From: a virus
Taxonomy: Duplodnaviria; Heunggongvirae; Uroviricota; Caudoviricetes
DNA: 9,828 nt
Virus record (IMG/VR): IMGVR_UViG_2537562191_000038
Span: 1 to 9,828 of that record
Reading direction: 5' to 3' (one strand)
Under the pieces are notes generated by a model. It was not told the DNA's origin. It was given only the letters and a program-made list of their open reading frames with translations, and searched no databases. Below are positions 1-9,828 of this stretch, piece after piece. How positions within the stretch are numbered: position 1 is the first letter of the stretch; every line of letters begins with the position of its first letter. The position numbers and the translations under genes were made by a program.

Positions 1-25
1 ATTCGTTAAATAATGGAGTGAGAGG

Positions 26-262
26 ATGCAGAACAATCCGAACAAATGTCGAACGCTATGGGTGCGGTTATATATTTATGCCGTCCTCTGTTTGATTGTG
101 TCACTGGTTCTGTATGTTTGGCTTTTGCCAAATATGATCTCATCTAACAGCACAATACTTGTATTGTTGGGAGTCCTTCTCGCGCTCATTTACCCGGCTT
201 TCGCAGTAGTCTTTTTTCGTGAAAAAACCAGGAAATTAATTAATGAAAAAAACGTTGATTAG
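26..262 (+). CDS. Small hydrophobic membrane protein (78 aa), probable partner of the downstream SPFH lipoprotein
   Basis: ORF with an upstream GGAG-type ribosome-binding site (taatGGAGtgagagg then ATG at 26). Two long hydrophobic segments suggest two transmembrane helices. The 3' end overlaps the next gene by 20 nt, suggesting co-translation. Confidence 0.5.
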   Translation: MQNNPNKCRTLWVRLYIYAVLCLIVSLVLYVWLLPNMISSNSTILVLLGVLLALIYPAFAVVFFREKTRKLINEKNVD

Positions 263-1070
263 TGCAGCGATTATTTTGGGTTCTTTATGTCTGACCGGAT
301 GCGATCGGGTAGAGCCAGGTAACGTAGGGATCAAAGTAAATAAGCTGGGGGATGATAAAGGTATCGGTGAAGTAGTTGGCGTTGGTCGCTACTGGACAGG
401 CTTGAATACTGAAGTTTATATCTTCCCGACCTTTAAGCAAATGAAGACATACGATGAGCCGTTCAGCTTCCAGATGAGCGACGGAACAACCATTGGTTAC
501 CACATCGGCGTAGCCTACAAGGTTGATCCAGCAAAAGTCACAACGGTATTTCAGACCTATCGCAAAGGTGTAGATGATATTACTGATACCGATCTACGCC
601 AGAAGGTTGCAGATGCTCTGAACCGATTAGCCAGCAAAATGACCACCGACAAATTTATCGACGGTGGCAAATCTGAATTGCTTGATGCAGCCCTTAAAGA
701 CATTCAGGAAGAAATGACGCCAATCGGCATTCAGGTGATGAGCCTCTCTTATGTAGGTAAGCCAGAATACCCGCCAACAGTTATTGACAGTATTAACGCC
801 AAAGTCACGGCAAACCAAAAAACCCTGCAACGCGAGCAAGAGGTCAAACAACGTGAAGCAGAGGCCAACATGCTGCGCGCGGAAGCTGCCGGACAGGCTG
901 ATGCTATTCGCACAAAAGCCCAGGCCGAAGCTGATGCCATTCGTTTACGTGGTGAAGCTCTGCGCCAGAACCCCGGTGTTATGGACTTGGAAGCGATCAA
1001 CAAATGGAACGGTACATTACCGCAGTATATGACCAGTAATACCGCTGTTCCGTTTGTTCCGGTGAAATAA
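243..1070 (+). CDS. SPFH/band-7 (stomatin/prohibitin-like) domain lipoprotein, 275 aa
   Basis: N-terminus MKKTLISAAIILGSLCLTGC is a signal peptide with a lipobox (LTGC). The central region has the SPFH-like pattern and the C-terminal part is Ala/Glu/Arg/Gln-rich and probably coiled-coil (QREQEVKQREAEANMLRAEAAGQADAIRTKAQAEADAIRLRGEA). AGGAA sits 8 nt upstream of the ATG. Family assignment is from recalled signatures, not a search. Confidence 0.7.
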   Translation: MKKTLISAAIILGSLCLTGCDRVEPGNVGIKVNKLGDDKGIGEVVGVGRYWTGLNTEVYIFPTFKQMKTYDEPFSFQMSDGTTIGYHIGVAYKVDPAKVTTVFQTYRKGVDDITDTDLRQKVADALNRLASKMTTDKFIDGGKSELLDAALKDIQEEMTPIGIQVMSLSYVGKPEYPPTVIDSINAKVTANQKTLQREQEVKQREAEANMLRAEAAGQADAIRTKAQAEADAIRLRGEALRQNPGVMDLEAINKWNGTLPQYMTSNTAVPFVPVK

Positions 1071-1097
1071 AAGCGTAAGCAAAATTGGCAGTAATCC

Positions 1098-1173
1098 GGC
1101 CCTTTAGCTCAGTGGTTAGAGCTGGCGACTCATAATCGCACGGTCACCGGTTCAAGTCCGGTAGGGGCCACCA
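1098..1173 (+). tRNA. tRNA with CAU anticodon, 76 nt with encoded CCA; most similar by memory to the enterobacterial tRNA-Ile2 (lysidine, ileX/ileY type) rather than elongator tRNA-Met
   Basis: Cloverleaf folded by hand: acceptor stem GGCCCTT/AGGGGCC (7 bp, one G-U), D-stem GCTC/GAGC, anticodon stem GGCGA/TCGCA with loop CTCATAA (anticodon CAT), T-stem ACCGG/CCGGT with loop TTCAAGT, discriminator A, CCA at 1171-1173. Ile2 versus Met identity is from recalled similarity to ileX and is not proven. Confidence 0.85.
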
Positions 1174-2714
1174 TATTTGGTTGTAACACGGCGTCTGGCA
1201 CATGCGTCGTTAGCGGTCTGGTGACGTTAAAGGGGTAACCTTTCCCCTAGCTCAGGCAACAAACCAGGTAGCCGGAATGTGCAAGCCCCGTTCATAGCGT
1301 CGGACTGCGGATTCACCATCCTGGCGATTCGGTGTGACAGCCGGGAAGAGTCCGGCGCATTAATCCTGATTTTCTGGTGATGACTCATATCGTTAGGAGT
1401 GATTTGAGTATGCCGATTATATCTGACATTCAGCACGCCTGGGTGGAGTGCTAATGTCTGCATCCCCTCTTGAATCCATGCCAAATTCCCTTAGTGCAGA
1501 ACAAGCTGTACTTGGTGGCTTAATGCTTGATAACTGCCGCTGGGATGAAGTTGCAGATCGTATAGTTGCTGATGATTTTTATACCAGTGCTCATCGTGAA
1601 ATTTTCAGTGAGATGGAGAGGTTATTAAGTCATGGCAAACCGATTGATTTGATAACACTTGCTGAAGCACTTGAACAGAACGGTAAATTAGAACGCGCCG
1701 GTGGTTTTGCGTACCTTGCGGAGATGTCAAAGAACACGCCCAGCGCGGCAAATATTTGTGCTTATGCGGATATCGTTCGTGAACGCGCGGTTGTTCGTGA
1801 AATGATTTCCGTCGCAAATGAAATAGCTGAAGCTGGATATGCGCAGGATGGCAGGGGCAGCAATGAATTGCTGGATATGGCCGAGCGCCGCGTTTTTGAA
1901 ATAGCTGAAAAACGACAAAAGAGCGGTAGTGGTCCAAAAGATATCGCCAGCATTCTCGATGCAACGGTATCTCGCATAGAAGAGTTGTTTCAGCGACCGC
2001 ATGATGGTGTAACGGGGCTTGATACCGGATTTACCGATCTCAATAAGAAGACGGCAGGACTTCAGGCGTCCGATCTCATTATTGTCGCCGCCCGCCCATC
2101 GATGGGGAAGACTACGTTTGCGATGAATCTCGTCGAAAATGCCGCAGTCCGTAACGATAAGCCCGTATTGGTTTTTAGCCTTGAGATGCCGAGCCACCAA
2201 CTGATGATGCGCTCACTGGCTTCTCTTGCACGCGTTGATCAGACTCGTATTCGAACAGGGCAACTTAACGACGAGGATTGGGCGCGGGTTTCTGGCGCAA
2301 TGGGGATTCTGTTGGACAAGCAGAATATTTTTATTGATGACTCAAGCGCCCTGACACCTACAGAGCTTCGTTCCCGCGCTCGTCGTGTTTATAAAGAAAA
2401 TGGTGGTTTGAGCATGATTATGATCGACTACCTGCAACTTATGCGCGTCCCCGAGCTGCAAGATAACCGAACGCTGGAAATTGCCGAGATTTCTCGCTCA
2501 CTGAAGGCTTTGGCGAAGGAATTACAAGTACCGGTGGTGGCATTGTCACAACTTAATCGATCGCTTGAACAGCGTGCGGACAAACGACCGGTAAATTCAG
2601 ATTTACGTGAATCAGGAGCAATTGAGCAGGACGCAGACCTGATCATGTTTCTGTATCGCGACGAAGTTTATCACCCGGATAGCGAAATGAAGGGCATTGC
2701 CGAGGTAATTATCG

Positions 2715-2717
2715 GAA
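2715..2717. repeat. 3-bp target-site duplication (GAA), left copy, flanking IS629 copy 1
   Basis: GAA lies directly outside both IS termini (2715-2717 and 4028-4030). Removing the IS and one GAA restores an uninterrupted DnaB reading frame. Confidence 0.75.
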
Positions 2718-2759
2718 TGAACCGCCCCGGGTTTCCTGGAGAGTGTTTTATCTGTGAAC

Positions 2760-3650
2760 TCAGGCTGCCAGATCATCGTTTCCGATGGAAGCATAATAAG
2801 CTTTTTCTGCTTCTGCCGGAGGAGTATGGCCCAGCCTTCCCAGCAATCGTCGATTGTTATACCAGTCCACCCACGTTAGTGTGGCCAGTTCCACTTCTGC
2901 ACGGTTTTTCCAGCTCTTACGGTGTATTACCTCCGCTTTGTAAAGACCATTGATGCTCTCAGCCATCGCGTTGTCATACGAGTCTCCTGTACTCCCTGTT
3001 GATGCCAGTAATCCGGCTTCTTTTAGTCGCTCCGTATAGGCCAGTGACACATACTGAGAGCCTTTATCGCTGTGATGGATGGTGCCAGACGGACGACGGG
3101 CCCACAACGCCTGCTCCAGCGCATCCAGCACGAATGTCGTTTCCATAGACGATGAGACCCGCCACCCCACGATGTATCCGGCAAACACATCAATGATAAA
3201 CGCCACATAGACGAAGCCCTGCCATGTGCTGACGTAAGTAAAATCAGCCACCCACAGCTGGTCAGGTCGTTCTGCCACGAACTGACGGTTTACGCGGTCG
3301 CCTGCGGCAACGGCTTTCCGGCTGATGGTCGTACGGACCTTTTTACCCCGGAGAACACCGGCAAGTCCCATAACCGCCATGAGACGTGCCACTGTACATC
3401 TGGCCACCCTGATTCCTTCCCGTAACAACTGACGCCAGACTTTACGCACACCGTACACCTGATGATTTTCATCGTATACGCGCTGTATCTCTCTCTTCAG
3501 CCAGTCGTCGTGCTGCGCACGGGCACTGCGTTTATCCGGATGATGTCGCTGTTGCTGACAATGGTAATACGTTGACGGGGCAATATGCAGTTCGCTGCAT
3601 ACCGGTCCGACCCCGTACTGCTCACGCAGCTTATCCAGCAGTGGCATCAT
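2760..3650 (-). CDS. IS629 OrfB (DDE integrase-core transposase), 296 aa from the MMPLLDKL start; the same frame is open upstream to an ATG at 3731 in this copy
   Basis: Translation contains a retroviral-integrase-like DDE core (WVADFTYV..., HHSDKGSQY..., ...[14 protein letters not shown]) and is identical to the partial OrfB of copy 2 over the shared portion. The 323-aa ORF in the track (2760-3731) includes a 27-codon upstream extension created by the two homopolymer differences. Confidence 0.85.
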   Translation of the reverse strand: MMPLLDKLREQYGVGPVCSELHIAPSTYYHCQQQRHHPDKRSARAQHDDWLKREIQRVYDENHQVYGVRKVWRQLLREGIRVARCTVARLMAVMGLAGVLRGKKVRTTISRKAVAAGDRVNRQFVAERPDQLWVADFTYVSTWQGFVYVAFIIDVFAGYIVGWRVSSSMETTFVLDALEQALWARRPSGTIHHSDKGSQYVSLAYTERLKEAGLLASTGSTGDSYDNAMAESINGLYKAEVIHRKSWKNRAEVELATLTWVDWYNNRRLLGRLGHTPPAEAEKAYYASIGNDDLAA

Positions 3651-3727
3651 TTTTCCAGAGGCGGTCGAACTCCGCCTTCGCAAAATAAGCGGAAGCCTGG
3701 CGAAGGATATCGTTACTGCGGCGCAGT

Positions 3728-3973
3728 TCACGATTTTTCACGTTCCAGCTCTTTCAGACGCTGACGTTCAGCGCTGGTGAGCCCACCATCACCGCCCCCG
3801 GTATCCCGCTCATGCTGGCGAACCCAGACACGCAGAGTCTCCGGCGTACAGCCAATCTTTGGGGCAATGGAACAAATTGCCGCCCACTGTGAGTCATATT
3901 CATCCTGACTTTCCAGAACCATACGAATCGCCCGCTGACGGACTTCGGGGGAAAAACGAGTATTTTTAGTCAT
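3728..3973 (-). CDS. IS629 OrfA (helix-turn-helix transposase subunit), shortened variant (81 aa instead of 108 aa in copy 2)
   Basis: Identical to copy-2 OrfA up to ...KELERE, then KS-stop. The plus-strand T-run at 3734-3738 has 5 T where copy 2 has 4 A (8995-8998), shifting the frame. Confidence 0.8.
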
Positions 3974-4000
3974 CCTGTTTACCTCTTTCTCAGGGAGTTT

Positions 4001-4027
4001 AGTCTCCAGGATTTCCGGGGCGGTTCA
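4001..4027. repeat. IS629 left terminal inverted repeat (copy 1)
   Basis: Reverse complement reads TGAACCGCCCCGGAAATCCTGGAGACT, matching the right end at 2718-2744 (TGAACCGCCCCGGGTTTCCTGGAGAGT) at about 22 of 27 positions. Confidence 0.8.
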
Positions 4028-4030
4028 GAA
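4028..4030. repeat. 3-bp target-site duplication (GAA), right copy, flanking IS629 copy 1
   Basis: See left copy at 2715-2717. Confidence 0.75.
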
Positions 4031-4130
4031 AGCAACGAAATGGCCCAATTGGCACGGTGAGATTGGCTTTTAACGGCCAATACTCACGGTTTGATAACTA
4101 TGCTGGTGCTGACTGGCAAGAGGATTATTA

Positions 4131-5129
4131 ATGCAATGGAATGAGGAAAAGCCGATGAACATCCTGATCATTGGGCGAAAATTTGAAGCTATCAGTGATG
4201 TGAAAACATATACGGAAATGTGGGCTTACAACCTGGCCTGCGCCTTTAGTGAGGCAGGGGTAACATTGCAATTCCATCGTCCATATTCCCCCGGCGTCGA
4301 AAGCCCGGAGGATTATGTTGAAGCTGTGTTGACCGCTGCGACCTCGTGTTCTGCGAAAGCCATTTTAGCGCCAGGATTGCGGTATTTTACTACGGTGCCC
4401 AGGGAAATAGGCGTGCAACTGCGTCGTCGATTCACTGGATGGGTAGCCCAGGTATACGACGGTTCTATGCTGGATTCGGCACCAGTCGATATTACTTTTA
4501 CTGTCCGCGATGATACCTGGCGGTACCTGGATAATCCCGGCAGGTTAGAGCGTCATAATCGCTTTAACAAACATGTTGGATGGGCAGCGAATCAGGATCT
4601 GTTCCATCTGGAAACCAAAACAGACGATGTTCTGCGTATTTTTGTAGACCACGCTGCATTTGATGTTAGTGGGTTTGATCACTCCTTAAGTATCCTTATG
4701 AACCTTCAGCGTCTGACCGTTCCGTATGAGGCCAGAACGTTGACCGATGACGGATTGATTACCATTGATCCGGGGAATATATCGGTAACCCCATACAGAC
4801 GGACGCCGGTACCAGCAACCGAATTTGCAGCTGAATTGCGTAAGAGTGACGTGTTTATCGTTACGCATCCCGAAAGCCTTGGATTAACTGTACTTGAGGC
4901 GGCAATGTGCGGGGCGTTGGTATTAACGCCTCCCGATTGTCTTCCGCCAGATCGCCTGGCTTTGGTGAACCATATGGTTATCAAGTCGCGGATTGATTGG
5001 GATGAGGTTATTGCTCGCGTTGATCGCGTGAAAAATGCTGAAAAGGTCCAGTGTCACACCTGGTCGGCAATTGCGGAAAAGATGCTTGAGACGTTTGTCA
5101 CGCAGAAACCGTCGCGCGGTAACGGATAA
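4131..5129 (+). CDS. Glycosyltransferase-like protein, GT-B fold with an EX7E motif (GT4-like), 332 aa, no confident substrate assignment
   Basis: C-terminal segment SDVFIVTHPESLGLTVLEAAMCGALVLTPP matches the retaining GT-B EX7E signature (E-SLGLTVL-E followed by A-x-G). The N-terminus MNILIIGRKF looks like the start of a Rossmann-type domain. ATG at 4131 overlaps the helicase stop (TAATG); an alternative start at ATG 4155 has a GAGGA site 7 nt upstream. No signal peptide or transmembrane segment is evident. Family call is from motif recognition only. Confidence 0.5.
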   Translation: MQWNEEKPMNILIIGRKFEAISDVKTYTEMWAYNLACAFSEAGVTLQFHRPYSPGVESPEDYVEAVLTAATSCSAKAILAPGLRYFTTVPREIGVQLRRRFTGWVAQVYDGSMLDSAPVDITFTVRDDTWRYLDNPGRLERHNRFNKHVGWAANQDLFHLETKTDDVLRIFVDHAAFDVSGFDHSLSILMNLQRLTVPYEARTLTDDGLITIDPGNISVTPYRRTPVPATEFAAELRKSDVFIVTHPESLGLTVLEAAMCGALVLTPPDCLPPDRLALVNHMVIKSRIDWDEVIARVDRVKNAEKVQCHTWSAIAEKMLETFVTQKPSRGNG

Positions 5130-5151
5130 AAAATTGAACCCGTCATAACAG

Positions 5152-5174
5152 AAAAGCCCGAACGCCGGGCTTTT
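5152..5174. terminator. Bidirectional rho-independent terminator between convergent genes
   Basis: AAAA-GCCCG-aacgc-CGGGC-TTTT: a 5-bp GC-rich stem with 5-nt loop, flanked by an A-run upstream and a T-run downstream. It lies between the stop of the plus-strand gene (5129) and the stop of the minus-strand gene (5176). Confidence 0.6.
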
Positions 5175-5175
5175 C

Positions 5176-8322
<3,147 letters not shown>

Positions 8323-8705
8323 TTATCCTTTCCGTTTACGGGCTTCGTTAATTTGTGTCTCAAGAATGCTTCGCGCCTGCGCAGTGGCAGCGGCCTTGTC
8401 CATTCCCTGACTCATGAAAAACTTTATGAGGTTGTTCGCCTGCGTTTGCAGGGCTTTTTTGAGAGCGTCGGCTTCAGCGCGAGCCTGGGCTTCCCTCACC
8501 CGCGATGCTTTTAGTTCGGCATTCTTCCTGTTTGCCGTGGTGCGAGCTTTTTTTAACAACCGGCGAACGTTGTCCGTGGCGCTATCTTTTGCGCGTAGTT
8601 TTTTGCCTAATGCATCCTGAGATTTCAGATACAGCTCATACTCACGCGCAGCTTTAGCCTGATCCGTCGTTGTTGTCCGGTTGCGCGCGAGCGATTTAGC
8701 CAGTT
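8323..8705 (-). pseudogene. 5'-truncated gene for a Lys/Ala/Arg-rich, probably coiled-coil protein (at least 126 C-terminal codons retained); N-terminal part separated or lost by the IS629 copy 2 insertion
   Basis: The reading frame is open on the minus strand from the IS boundary (8705) to the stop at 8323-8325, with no ATG in the first 48 codons (KLAKSLARNRTTTDQAKAAREYELYLKSQDALGKKLRAKDSATDNVRRLLKKARTTANRKNAELKASRVREAQARAEADALKKALQTQANNLIKFFMSQGMDKAAATAQARSILETQINEARKRKG). The 78-aa ORF in the track starts only at an internal TTG. Confidence 0.55.
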
Positions 8706-8759
8706 TGAACCGCCCCGGAAATCCTGGAGACTAAACTCCCTGAGAAAGAGGTAAACAGG

Positions 8760-9086
8760 ATGACTAAAAATACTCGTTTTTCCCCCGAAGTCCGTCAGCG
8801 GGCGATTCGTATGGTTCTGGAAAGTCAGGATGAATATGACTCACAGTGGGCGGCAATTTGTTCCATTGCCCCAAAGATTGGCTGTACGCCGGAGACTCTG
8901 CGTGTCTGGGTTCGCCAGCATGAGCGGGATACCGGGGGCGGTGATGGTGGGCTCACCAGCGCTGAACGTCAGCGTCTGAAAGAGCTGGAACGTGAAAATC
9001 GTGAACTGCGCCGCAGTAACGATATCCTTCGCCAGGCTTCCGCTTATTTTGCGAAGGCGGAGTTCGACCGCCTCTGGAAAAAATGA
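8760..9086 (+). CDS. IS629 OrfA, full length (108 aa)
   Basis: [22 protein letters not shown]...[34 protein letters not shown], with stop TGA at 9084-9086 inside the A6 run and ATGATG region typical of an IS3-family frameshift window. Confidence 0.9.
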
Positions 9087-9828
9087 TGCCACTGCTGGAT
9101 AAGCTGCGTGAGCAGTACGGGGTCGGACCGGTATGCAGCGAACTGCATATTGCCCCGTCAACGTATTACCATTGTCAGCAACAGCGACATCATCCGGATA
9201 AACGCAGTGCCCGTGCGCAGCACGACGACTGGCTGAAGAGAGAGATACAGCGCGTATACGATGAAAATCATCAGGTGTACGGTGTGCGTAAAGTCTGGCG
9301 TCAGTTGTTACGGGAAGGAATCAGGGTGGCCAGATGTACAGTGGCACGTCTCATGGCGGTTATGGGACTTGCCGGTGTTCTCCGGGGTAAAAAGGTCCGT
9401 ACGACCATCAGCCGGAAAGCCGTTGCCGCAGGCGACCGCGTAAACCGTCAGTTCGTGGCAGAACGACCTGACCAGCTGTGGGTGGCTGATTTTACTTACG
9501 TCAGCACATGGCAGGGCTTCGTCTATGTGGCGTTTATCATTGATGTGTTTGCCGGATACATCGTGGGGTGGCGGGTCTCATCGTCTATGGAAACGACATT
9601 CGTGCTGGATGCGCTGGAGCAGGCGTTGTGGGCCCGTCGTCCGTCTGGCACCATCCATCACAGCGATAAAGGCTCTCAGTATGTGTCACTGGCCTATACG
9701 GAGCGACTAAAAGAAGCCGGATTACTGGCATCAACAGGGAGTACAGGCGACTCGTATGACAACGCGATGGCTGAGAGCATCAATGGTCTTTACAAAGCGG
9801 AGGTAATACACCGTAAGAGCTGGAAAAA
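9083..9828 (+). CDS. IS629 OrfB transposase (DDE), 3'-partial at window end
   Basis: Starts ATGATG at 9083 in the -1 frame relative to OrfA. Translation [22 protein letters not shown]... is identical to copy-1 OrfB and is cut by the window edge within ...HRKSWKN. Confidence 0.85.

Follow-up and report, generated by a model that had tools for sequence, protein, structure and literature searches.

Here, we examined a 9,828-nucleotide stretch of viral DNA (IMG/VR record IMGVR_UViG_2537562191_000038, positions 1 to 9,828), hereafter called the window, which sequence comparison assigns to a P1-like phage-plasmid of Escherichia coli, and we focused on the open reading frame (ORF) located at positions 4131 to 5129. 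This gene is not new: it is dbn of bacteriophage P1, which is annotated as "possible glycosyltransferase". The explanation we favour, tentatively and at somewhat less than even confidence, is that Dbn is a soluble GT-B enzyme belonging to an accessory set of four transferases, together with PmgO, PmgP and PmgQ, that would act on a lipid-linked envelope glycan containing 3-deoxy-D-manno-octulosonic acid (Kdo). What is new here is the connection of dbn with pmgO, pmgP and pmgQ and the proposed ancestry of the set in Kdo-polysaccharide loci, a connection that comes from sequence comparison and is as yet unproven. Although P1 is among the phages most used in genetics, roughly half of its genes still lack an assigned role, and such a set would offer one possible explanation for four "dispensable" genes that are conserved across hundreds of P1-like plasmids from pathogenic E. 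coli and Salmonella.

Identity, conserved motifs and fold of Dbn

The original prediction, made from the letters of the window alone, had pointed to a glycosyltransferase-like frame starting at an ATG that overlaps the TAA codon of the upstream helicase frame; this frame, of 332 codons on the plus strand, proved to be a real, conserved gene. The full-length protein (residues 1–332) matches PHROG 2518 (E 7e-239), a family labelled "unknown function", and an exhaustive HMMER search retrieved 255 cluster representatives, mostly of 300 to 340 amino acids. The same gene product, of the same length, is named P1_gp078 in P1 (YP_006544.1), Glt in P7 and "putative glycosyltransferase, Dbn" in RCS47. 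The nucleotide sequence of the dbn region is 99.9–100% identical to that of the approximately 97-kb plasmids of Shiga toxin-producing E. coli (STEC) O111/O26, such as pO111_2, and 96.5% identical to that of bacteriophage P1, while the window protein itself carries few substitutions and shares 96% identity with the main cluster.

The EX7E motif already noticed in the C-terminal domain was confirmed by a family alignment. Across 66 divergent members (25–40% identity), the two glutamates E248 and E256 are invariant together with H246, G261, D173-H174 and W311, and a GWAAD motif is near-invariant. Residues 246–261 (HPESLGLTVLEAAMCG, codons at 4866..4913, plus strand) are the sole region of Dbn matched by both Pfam Glycos_transf_1 and the sequence of a solved glycosyltransferase. 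The D173-H174 pair (4647..4652, plus strand), a family-specific "DH" motif just past the first strand of the C-terminal domain, is invariant in two family alignments. The protein was modeled with AlphaFold2 from a 19-sequence alignment (predicted local distance difference test, pLDDT, 88.2; predicted template modeling score, pTM, 0.85), and the model displays the expected GT-B architecture, with two Rossmann-like domains, a strand at residues 168–172 and a C-terminal helix that crosses back to the N-terminal domain. Based on this model, Dbn is assigned to a divergent branch of the GT-B, EX7E-type (GT4-like) glycosyltransferases, and it is predicted to be catalytically active. Some close homologs bear a precomputed Pfam PF00534 match; NCBIfam holds no family for Dbn, PmgO, PmgP or PmgQ. 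A transmembrane segment was not detected in Dbn, the highest Kyte-Doolittle value over 19 residues being 1.53 and corresponding to the buried EX7E helix, nor was a signal-like N-terminus, in agreement with the cytoplasmic location proposed from the start; Dbn is thus predicted to be a soluble, cytoplasmic protein.

Two possible relationships with enzymes of the E. coli K-12 lipopolysaccharide (LPS) core were considered and rejected. In K-12, waaS lies near waaZ and its product is similar in size to Dbn; homology with WaaS was ruled out (hhalign probability 0.6%). A close relationship with WaaG or WaaB was discarded as well, these proteins giving weak local profile matches only.

Genomic context of Dbn homologs outside P1-like elements

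Divergent genomic contexts of Dbn were obtained by exact-protein look-ups. A profile word-index search with the 66-sequence alignment returned 16 proteins, and a back-translated pattern search with a narrower alignment yielded almost exclusively P1-like contigs in IMG/VR, plus three matches in GTDB genomes. Besides P1-like elements, Dbn homologs are encoded by two lambda-like contigs (with GpA terminase, portal and S49 protease genes) and a high-GC phage contig, in each of which the homolog belongs to a group of small, overlapping genes immediately upstream of the terminase, by a 95-kb Citrobacter phage-plasmid and a close relative, by a 133-kb phage contig and by the isolated coliphage EP_H11. 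In the non-P1 phage lineages examined, the neighbours of Dbn are other glycosyltransferase-like genes.

Five cellular loci were examined as well. In Brucella pseudogrignonensis, the Dbn homolog follows an ATP-binding cassette (ABC) ABC-2 permease, an ABC ATPase, two GT4 genes and a MptE-like gene, an arrangement of the Wzm/Wzt type. The Colwellia locus is kps-like, with ABC-2, ABC ATPase and Poly_export genes and a match to WaaZ_KDO_III; in Francisella, the Dbn homolog lies between a WaaZ-like gene, itself preceded by kdsC-like, kdsA and kdsD/kpsF-like genes, and a KpsC/S-type Capsule_synth gene; and ABC-2/Poly_export genes are found at the Sphingomonas locus. The fifth locus, on a 57-kb metagenomic contig (L171) devoid of phage genes, carries glycosyltransferase genes and a WaaZ-like gene beside the Dbn homolog; two additional 328-residue genes that gave the appearance of three tandem Dbn paralogs on this contig failed to match the Dbn hidden Markov model (HMM) and were set aside. 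Altogether, polysaccharide-synthesis neighbours are present at all five cellular loci, and export (ABC-2/Poly_export) or KpsC/S-type genes at four of them. A WaaZ-like gene lies at most 7 kb from the Dbn homolog in 9 of the 11 non-P1 loci.

The original prediction had described an enzyme wired to a replication module and had raised the possibility that homologs sit beside dnaB-like genes in other mobile elements. A dnaB neighbour was found neither in the phage-type loci examined (L003/L161, EP_H11, L004, L162, L005 and L172) nor in the five cellular ones. The adjacency with the helicase is thus confined to P1-like elements, and even there it is not obligate. The cellular homologs lie in polysaccharide-synthesis loci with no replication gene beside them, which is essentially the situation that the original prediction had named as speaking against it. 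Dbn is an accessory enzyme that does not belong to the replication machinery; that its gene comes after the helicase gene ban reflects an operon arrangement particular to P1-like elements.

A portable set of four glycosyltransferase genes

Comparison of the small genes flanking phage Dbn homologs by BLAST and profile HMMs grouped them into three families (A, B and C), all of which occur in P1-like genomes. PmgO and PmgP of P1 represent families A and B, which have in common a GPS...N...D...GxD motif set. They align with WaaZ, the transferase of the third Kdo in E. coli K-12, over 195 columns (hhalign probability 96.6%, E 6e-10) and, at the profile level, with the GT42 CMP-sialyltransferases Cst-II and Cst-I (E 8e-6). 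The Colwellia WaaZ-like member matches the NCBIfam model WaaZ_KDO_III with an E-value of 1e-14, below the cut-off of the model. PmgO and PmgP are therefore predicted to be WaaZ/GT73-like enzymes using a cytidine monophosphate (CMP)-activated ulosonic acid donor such as CMP-Kdo. Family C, to which P1 PmgQ corresponds, has two invariant motifs, YxDxDT and HGxPRP. It gives a match to a GT8 alpha-galactosyltransferase (E 1e-5) and weaker ones to glycogenin, and its DxD and HGxPRP motifs align to WaaJ, so that PmgQ is classified by sequence as a GT8-like DxD glycosyltransferase.

All four genes are found in the same genome in P1, pO111_2, L003/L161, L004, L005, L162 and EP_H11, the window itself covering only dbn. 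L162 and EP_H11 carry them in the order A-B-Dbn-C; in L004 the order is A-B-x-Dbn-C, and in L005 it is B-Dbn-C-A. The P1 set is split: dbn is followed by the convergent tail operon and pmgL-N, and then by pmgO-pmgP-ppp-pmgQ. We conclude from these comparisons that dbn, pmgO, pmgP and pmgQ form one portable accessory glycosyltransferase set, contiguous in several other phages.

Several additional observations concern the members of this set. The P1 genes pmgO, pmgP and pmgQ, named as "putative morphogenetic", map to positions 193–855, 753–1379 and 2050–2751 of our P1 piece L169 (P1 79592–82150), and the lambda-PP-like phosphatase gene ppp is found among the pmg genes in P1-like elements only. 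In EP_H11, the start of the Dbn homolog is overlapped by a WaaZ-like ORF (OP688485, approximately 42807–43445; L176 7394–8032) that is absent from the GenBank annotation; once it is counted, the EP_H11 block becomes a complete, contiguous four-gene block. The block of the lambda-like contig L004 includes a fifth, unrelated DxD-type gene of 189 codons (7435–8004) with a weak Nucleotid_trans match and no homolog in the other loci. In pO111_2, an IS1203 copy splits pmgQ (NC_013370 74685–76705; L168 25685–27705), so that inactivation of members of this set is under way in P1-like plasmids of STEC.

Proposed role of the set in envelope glycan modification

In P1, C1 operators are present on both operons, Op72 on ban-dbn and Op83 on pmgN-O-P-ppp-Q, and the four genes should thus be derepressed together. 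According to the mechanism we propose, lifting of the C1 repressor would lead to the expression of Dbn, PmgO, PmgP and PmgQ, which would then modify, one after another, a lipid-linked glycan containing Kdo, from the cytoplasmic side of the inner membrane. The acceptor in E. coli would most plausibly be the LPS inner core, and the outcome an altered LPS glycoform, the benefit being either a reduction of superinfection or a smaller loss of progeny on cell debris.

This reading rests on four lines of evidence: the cellular relatives of Dbn are located in polysaccharide-synthesis loci, most of them with export genes; a WaaZ-like partner is almost always present; the mixture of GT73, GT8 and GT4 enzymes mirrors the enzyme types of the E. 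coli LPS core; and CMP-Kdo, the donor of WaaZ, is made by Gram-negative hosts generally. The outer-core glucose of LPS is the receptor of P1, which makes receptor editing a plausible payoff. The addition of a third Kdo by WaaZ has been reported to accompany truncation of the outer core and loss of the attachment site of the O-antigen (PMC4651636). A cell-envelope precursor was among the targets suggested for Dbn at the outset, and it is the one that the genomic context favours. The identity of the gene, the fold, the conserved motifs, the gene set with its contexts and the dispensability of the genes are shown; the catalytic activity, the donor, the acceptor and the biological payoff are inferred.

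Several points weigh against this proposal. A PmgQ-like gene accompanies Dbn in all phage-type loci and in none of the five cellular ones, so the phage set may have its own acceptor, for instance a phage protein. Under C1 control the genes should be largely off in lysogens and on for less than 1 h during lytic growth, which would allow only limited replacement of pre-existing LPS. In the papers searchable here, no LPS change is documented in P1-infected or P1-lysogenic cells. As regards the protein, the match of Dbn to Pfam Glycos_transf_1 (PF00534) reaches 25.0 bits, below the cut-off of 26.4, and covers residues 229–315 only. The invariant D173-H174 seems to occupy, as judged by secondary-structure order alone, the place where GT4 enzymes usually have their diphosphate-binding Arg/Lys, implying that the donor of Dbn may be atypical. 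Finally, Dbn is acidic (isoelectric point 5.6) and displays no obvious basic membrane-binding surface.

A more ambitious version of the proposal, which we consider possible but rather unlikely, is that the set is a portable cassette of P1 and several unrelated temperate phages (lambda-like, EP_H11-like and the 133-kb phage) derived from bacterial Kdo-polysaccharide loci, which would rewrite the inner or outer core of the host LPS during lytic growth and thereby let the phage edit its own receptor from the cytoplasm. Such a cassette would differ from the periplasmic seroconversion of the Gtr type, and pmgO, pmgP and pmgQ would need renaming. More generally, if the set alters the LPS core, it would have a bearing on the efficiency of P1 transduction, on the host range of phage-plasmids and on the surface antigenicity of STEC. 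The literature searches retrieved no paper giving a function to Dbn or describing the four-gene set, and nothing on WaaZ in connection with prophages or with LPS modification by P1.

Alternative acceptors

In P1, dbn, pmgO, pmgP, ppp and pmgQ were found to be non-essential for lytic growth in a genome-wide CRISPR interference (CRISPRi) screen (PMC10695390). Gonzales et al. (PMC9024508) constructed 29 single-gene P1 knockouts, among which were in-frame deletions of dbn, pmgO, pmgP, pmgQ and ppp; in this article, five genes (pmgA, B, C, G and R) are described as essential and the other 24 knockouts as having normal plaquing and unchanged anti-restriction activity. The main text of the article, where the 27 proteins detected in the virion are presented, does not name Dbn.

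The two more probable of the alternatives, both of which we hold to be improbable, concern other acceptors. The first is that the four enzymes of the set assemble a short glycan on a structural protein of the phage or on a host protein, altering the virion surface or immune recognition. Some mycobacteriophage glycosyltransferases do modify capsid and tail proteins, and several features of the set would fit a similar function: the phage-only association of PmgQ-like genes with Dbn, the location of the block immediately before the genes for the small terminase and the structural proteins in lambda-like contigs, the position of the P1 dbn and pmg genes on either side of the tail operon, the resemblance of the WaaZ-like family to Maf-type flagellin glycosyltransferases (5mu5, E 2.7e-4) and the presence of GtfA, GtfC and SdgB, protein O-glycosyltransferases with a GT4 fold, among the structural neighbours of Dbn. 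Against it, the cellular homologs examined are all in polysaccharide-synthesis loci, most of which also include export genes, no protein-glycosylation locus is among them, and the P1 genes are under early-type promoters controlled by C1 rather than late ones. The published P1 data point in the same direction: the knockouts of dbn and of the pmg genes are reported without a plaquing defect, and the same article, which includes mass spectrometry of the virion, contains no word beginning with "glycos" (PMC9024508).

The second of these alternatives, to which we give about the same weight, is that Dbn glycosylates a small molecule or a nucleotide-linked metabolite (a host metabolite, a defence signal or a tRNA base) and that the other three enzymes extend the product. 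The top structural matches of Dbn include BshA, whose acceptor is malate, sucrose-phosphate synthase, GlgM and a tetrahydrobiopterin glucosyltransferase, the acidic and soluble character of Dbn would suit a substrate of this kind, and the dispensability of the genes in the laboratory host is often encountered with counter-defence genes. On the other hand, no PADLOC defence model matched Dbn, PmgO, PmgP or PmgQ at E ≤ 0.01, the genes that recur around the Dbn homologs serve polysaccharide assembly and export, and the presence of four transferases suggests an oligosaccharide product rather than a single modification.

DNA as the acceptor, one of the targets originally suggested, appears very unlikely. 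Dbn would in that case place a sugar on a modified base of the phage, either as a hypermodification or for anti-restriction, which would explain its place beside a replication gene, the stop/start overlap with ban being found in most P1-like elements. Restriction enzymes cut P1 DNA in the usual way, and sugars are not known to be present on it. Non-P1-like homologs never adjoin replication genes in the loci examined, and metabolic and envelope GT4 enzymes score above DNA glycosyltransferases in the structural comparison with Dbn. Moreover, DNA glycosylation requires a hydroxylated pyrimidine (5hmC, 5hmU or 5hoC) made by a thymidylate-synthase homolog of the phage (PMC13326640), and no such homolog was found in the whole of pO111_2 and in our P1 pieces by tblastn and phmmer, with the sensitivity of a single query (E. 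coli ThyA), nor is one annotated. Anti-restriction, as reported in the knockout study, was unchanged in all but five other mutants, the dbn deletion being among those made (PMC9024508).

Organization of the dbn locus

The window is collinear with P1 and pO111_2 except for insertion sequences (IS), with ban upstream of dbn and the convergent tail gene 5 downstream. The 5' part of ban (1454..2717, plus strand), which encodes the N- and C-terminal DnaB domains (Pfam DnaB and DnaB_C) and is 100% identical to pO111_2 dnaB up to position 2717, is truncated by an IS1203/IS629 element of the IS3 family (2718..4027, minus strand; rve/HTH_21 transposase). The boundaries of this element, established by blastn and inspection of the sequence, are marked by a 3-bp GAA target duplication (2715–2717 and 4028–4030), and it shares 99.8% identity with the IS1203 copies that pO111_2 carries. 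The 3' remnant of ban (4028..4131, plus strand), recognized by translation and by collinearity with P1 and pO111_2 from 4025–4028 onward, leaves 103 bp of ban sequence upstream of dbn (4028–4130). The TAA stop codon (4129–4131) of this frame, which ends in FDNYAGADWQEDY, shares one base with the dbn ATG (4131–4133). Co-expression with the helicase, which had been deduced from this overlap, cannot be drawn from it here, since the overlap is with a gene fragment. In addition, the insertion puts 1.3 kb between dbn and the C1-controlled ban promoter together with two predicted internal promoters annotated in P1, and a consensus scan of positions 3900–5300 found no promoter.

Translation of dbn may start at either of two in-frame codons, ATG 4131, preceded at 6 nt by the Shine-Dalgarno-like sequence AAGAGGA (4118..4124, plus strand), or ATG 4155 (M9), preceded at 7 nt by GAGGA (4143..4147, plus strand), both recognized by reading the sequence; M9 aligns with the start of nearly all homologs. 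The TAATG overlap between the ban stop and the dbn start is seen in about 86% of the P1-like IMG/VR contigs. In about 14% of them, ban and dbn are separated by a 101-residue ORF whose stop codon overlaps the M9 ATG. The overlap thus persists when the upstream neighbour varies, indicating that it is typical of dbn and that ban is not an obligate neighbour. The contigs carrying the additional ORF (for example L086 5693–5998) also encode a Dbn with a different C-terminus and, downstream of dbn, a 387-residue multi-pass membrane protein (L086 7042–8205) in place of gene 5 of the window.

That Dbn is a functional partner of the Ban helicase, modifying Ban or a component of the replisome or requiring stoichiometric co-translation with it, is the least probable of the explanations considered, for although the TAATG overlap and the C1-controlled operon would fit a partnership, another ORF separates the two genes in part of the P1-like contigs, distant phages carry a dbn homolog away from any dnaB gene, ban is destroyed in the window while dbn is intact, and stop/start overlaps are common in these phage operons, for example among the transferase genes themselves.

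The remainder of the window provides context. A GC-rich hairpin (5150..5176, strand not assigned; RNA folding energy −17.6 kcal/mol, z −3.4), bordered by A-run and T-run sequences, lies between dbn and the convergent gene 5 and is probably a bidirectional intrinsic terminator; a consensus terminator scan did not call it. It is followed by the P1 tail/baseplate operon (5176..8559, minus strand), with genes 5, 6, 24 and 7 and a 3'-terminal remnant of gene 25, identified from the ORFs, the P1 annotation and a Phage_base_V match in gene 5; this operon is outside the enzyme system. A second IS1203 copy (8706..9828, plus strand), inverted relative to the first (self-blastn identity 99.7% over 1124 bp), breaks tail gene 25 and extends past the end of the window. 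With both ban and gene 25 broken, this P1-like prophage-plasmid is probably defective. The two inverted IS1203/IS629 copies flank the ban remnant, dbn, genes 5, 6, 24 and 7 and part of gene 25, and the pair could invert or mobilise the enclosed 4.7-kb segment. At the other end of the window, a lipoprotein-like gene of the SPFH/Band-7 type (243–1070) is overlapped at its start by a 78-residue hydrophobic ORF (26–262), the two occupying the site held in P1 by tciA, tciB and tciC (TerB-like), upstream of a tRNA gene and ban. The tRNA gene (1098–1173) has a CAT anticodon and is called tRNA-Met by ARAGORN; its P1 equivalent is annotated trnI, a tRNA-Ile2 that would require lysidine modification.

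Comparison with known systems

The closest counterparts of the window gene are P1 Dbn, P7 Glt and RCS47 Dbn, which are the same gene with the same neighbours; the difference from P1 is that in the window IS1203 splits ban and moves the native promoter region 1.3 kb farther from dbn. With the retaining GT-B enzymes of family GT4 (BshA, sucrose-phosphate synthase, GlgM, PimA/PimB' and WaaG), Dbn shares the fold, the crossover helix at the C-terminus and an EX7E motif placed on the corresponding helix of the C-terminal domain; however, the identity is only 10–15%, Dbn has 332 residues instead of about 350–400, and its family has invariant motifs of its own (GWAAD and DH), seemingly where GT4 enzymes usually have their phosphate-binding Arg/Lys region.

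The resemblance to the K-12 LPS-core pathway lies in the partners, since PmgO, PmgP and their bacterial counterparts are homologs of WaaZ and since enzymes of the GT73, GT8 and GT4 types are combined. Dbn itself is not homologous to the proteins of the waa operon with which it was compared, no profile similarity to K-12 WaaG, WaaB or WaaS being detectable, and the phage set includes two WaaZ-like genes. Capsule and O-antigen loci that depend on an ABC transporter, of the kps and Wzm/Wzt types, are where cellular members of the Dbn family are found, with a WaaZ-like gene as neighbour, whereas the phages possess neither the transporter nor the Kdo-synthesis genes nor KpsC/S, and would thus have to use an acceptor and an export system of the host. 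Like the DNA glycosyltransferases of phages (T4 AGT and BGT, and the 5hoC arabinosyltransferases of RB69, DLP3 and HY126), Dbn is phage-encoded, soluble and of the GT-B type, but P1 contains neither a base-hydroxylating ThyA homolog, as far as a single ThyA query can detect one, nor genes for sugar activation.

Finally, the set can be compared with the GtrABC-type systems of seroconversion, which glucosylate the O-antigen. No membrane-embedded GtrA, GtrB or GtrC is encoded next to dbn, whose product has no transmembrane segment and whose neighbours are ban and tail genes, and PmgO, PmgP and PmgQ match families of soluble enzymes. Both systems are borne by temperate phages and both would change a surface glycan acting as receptor, the change being a proposal in the case of Dbn; the Gtr systems are periplasmic, depend on a bactoprenol carrier and on membrane proteins, and are expressed by the lysogen, whereas the Dbn set is predicted to be soluble and cytoplasmic, under a C1-repressed control of the lytic type.

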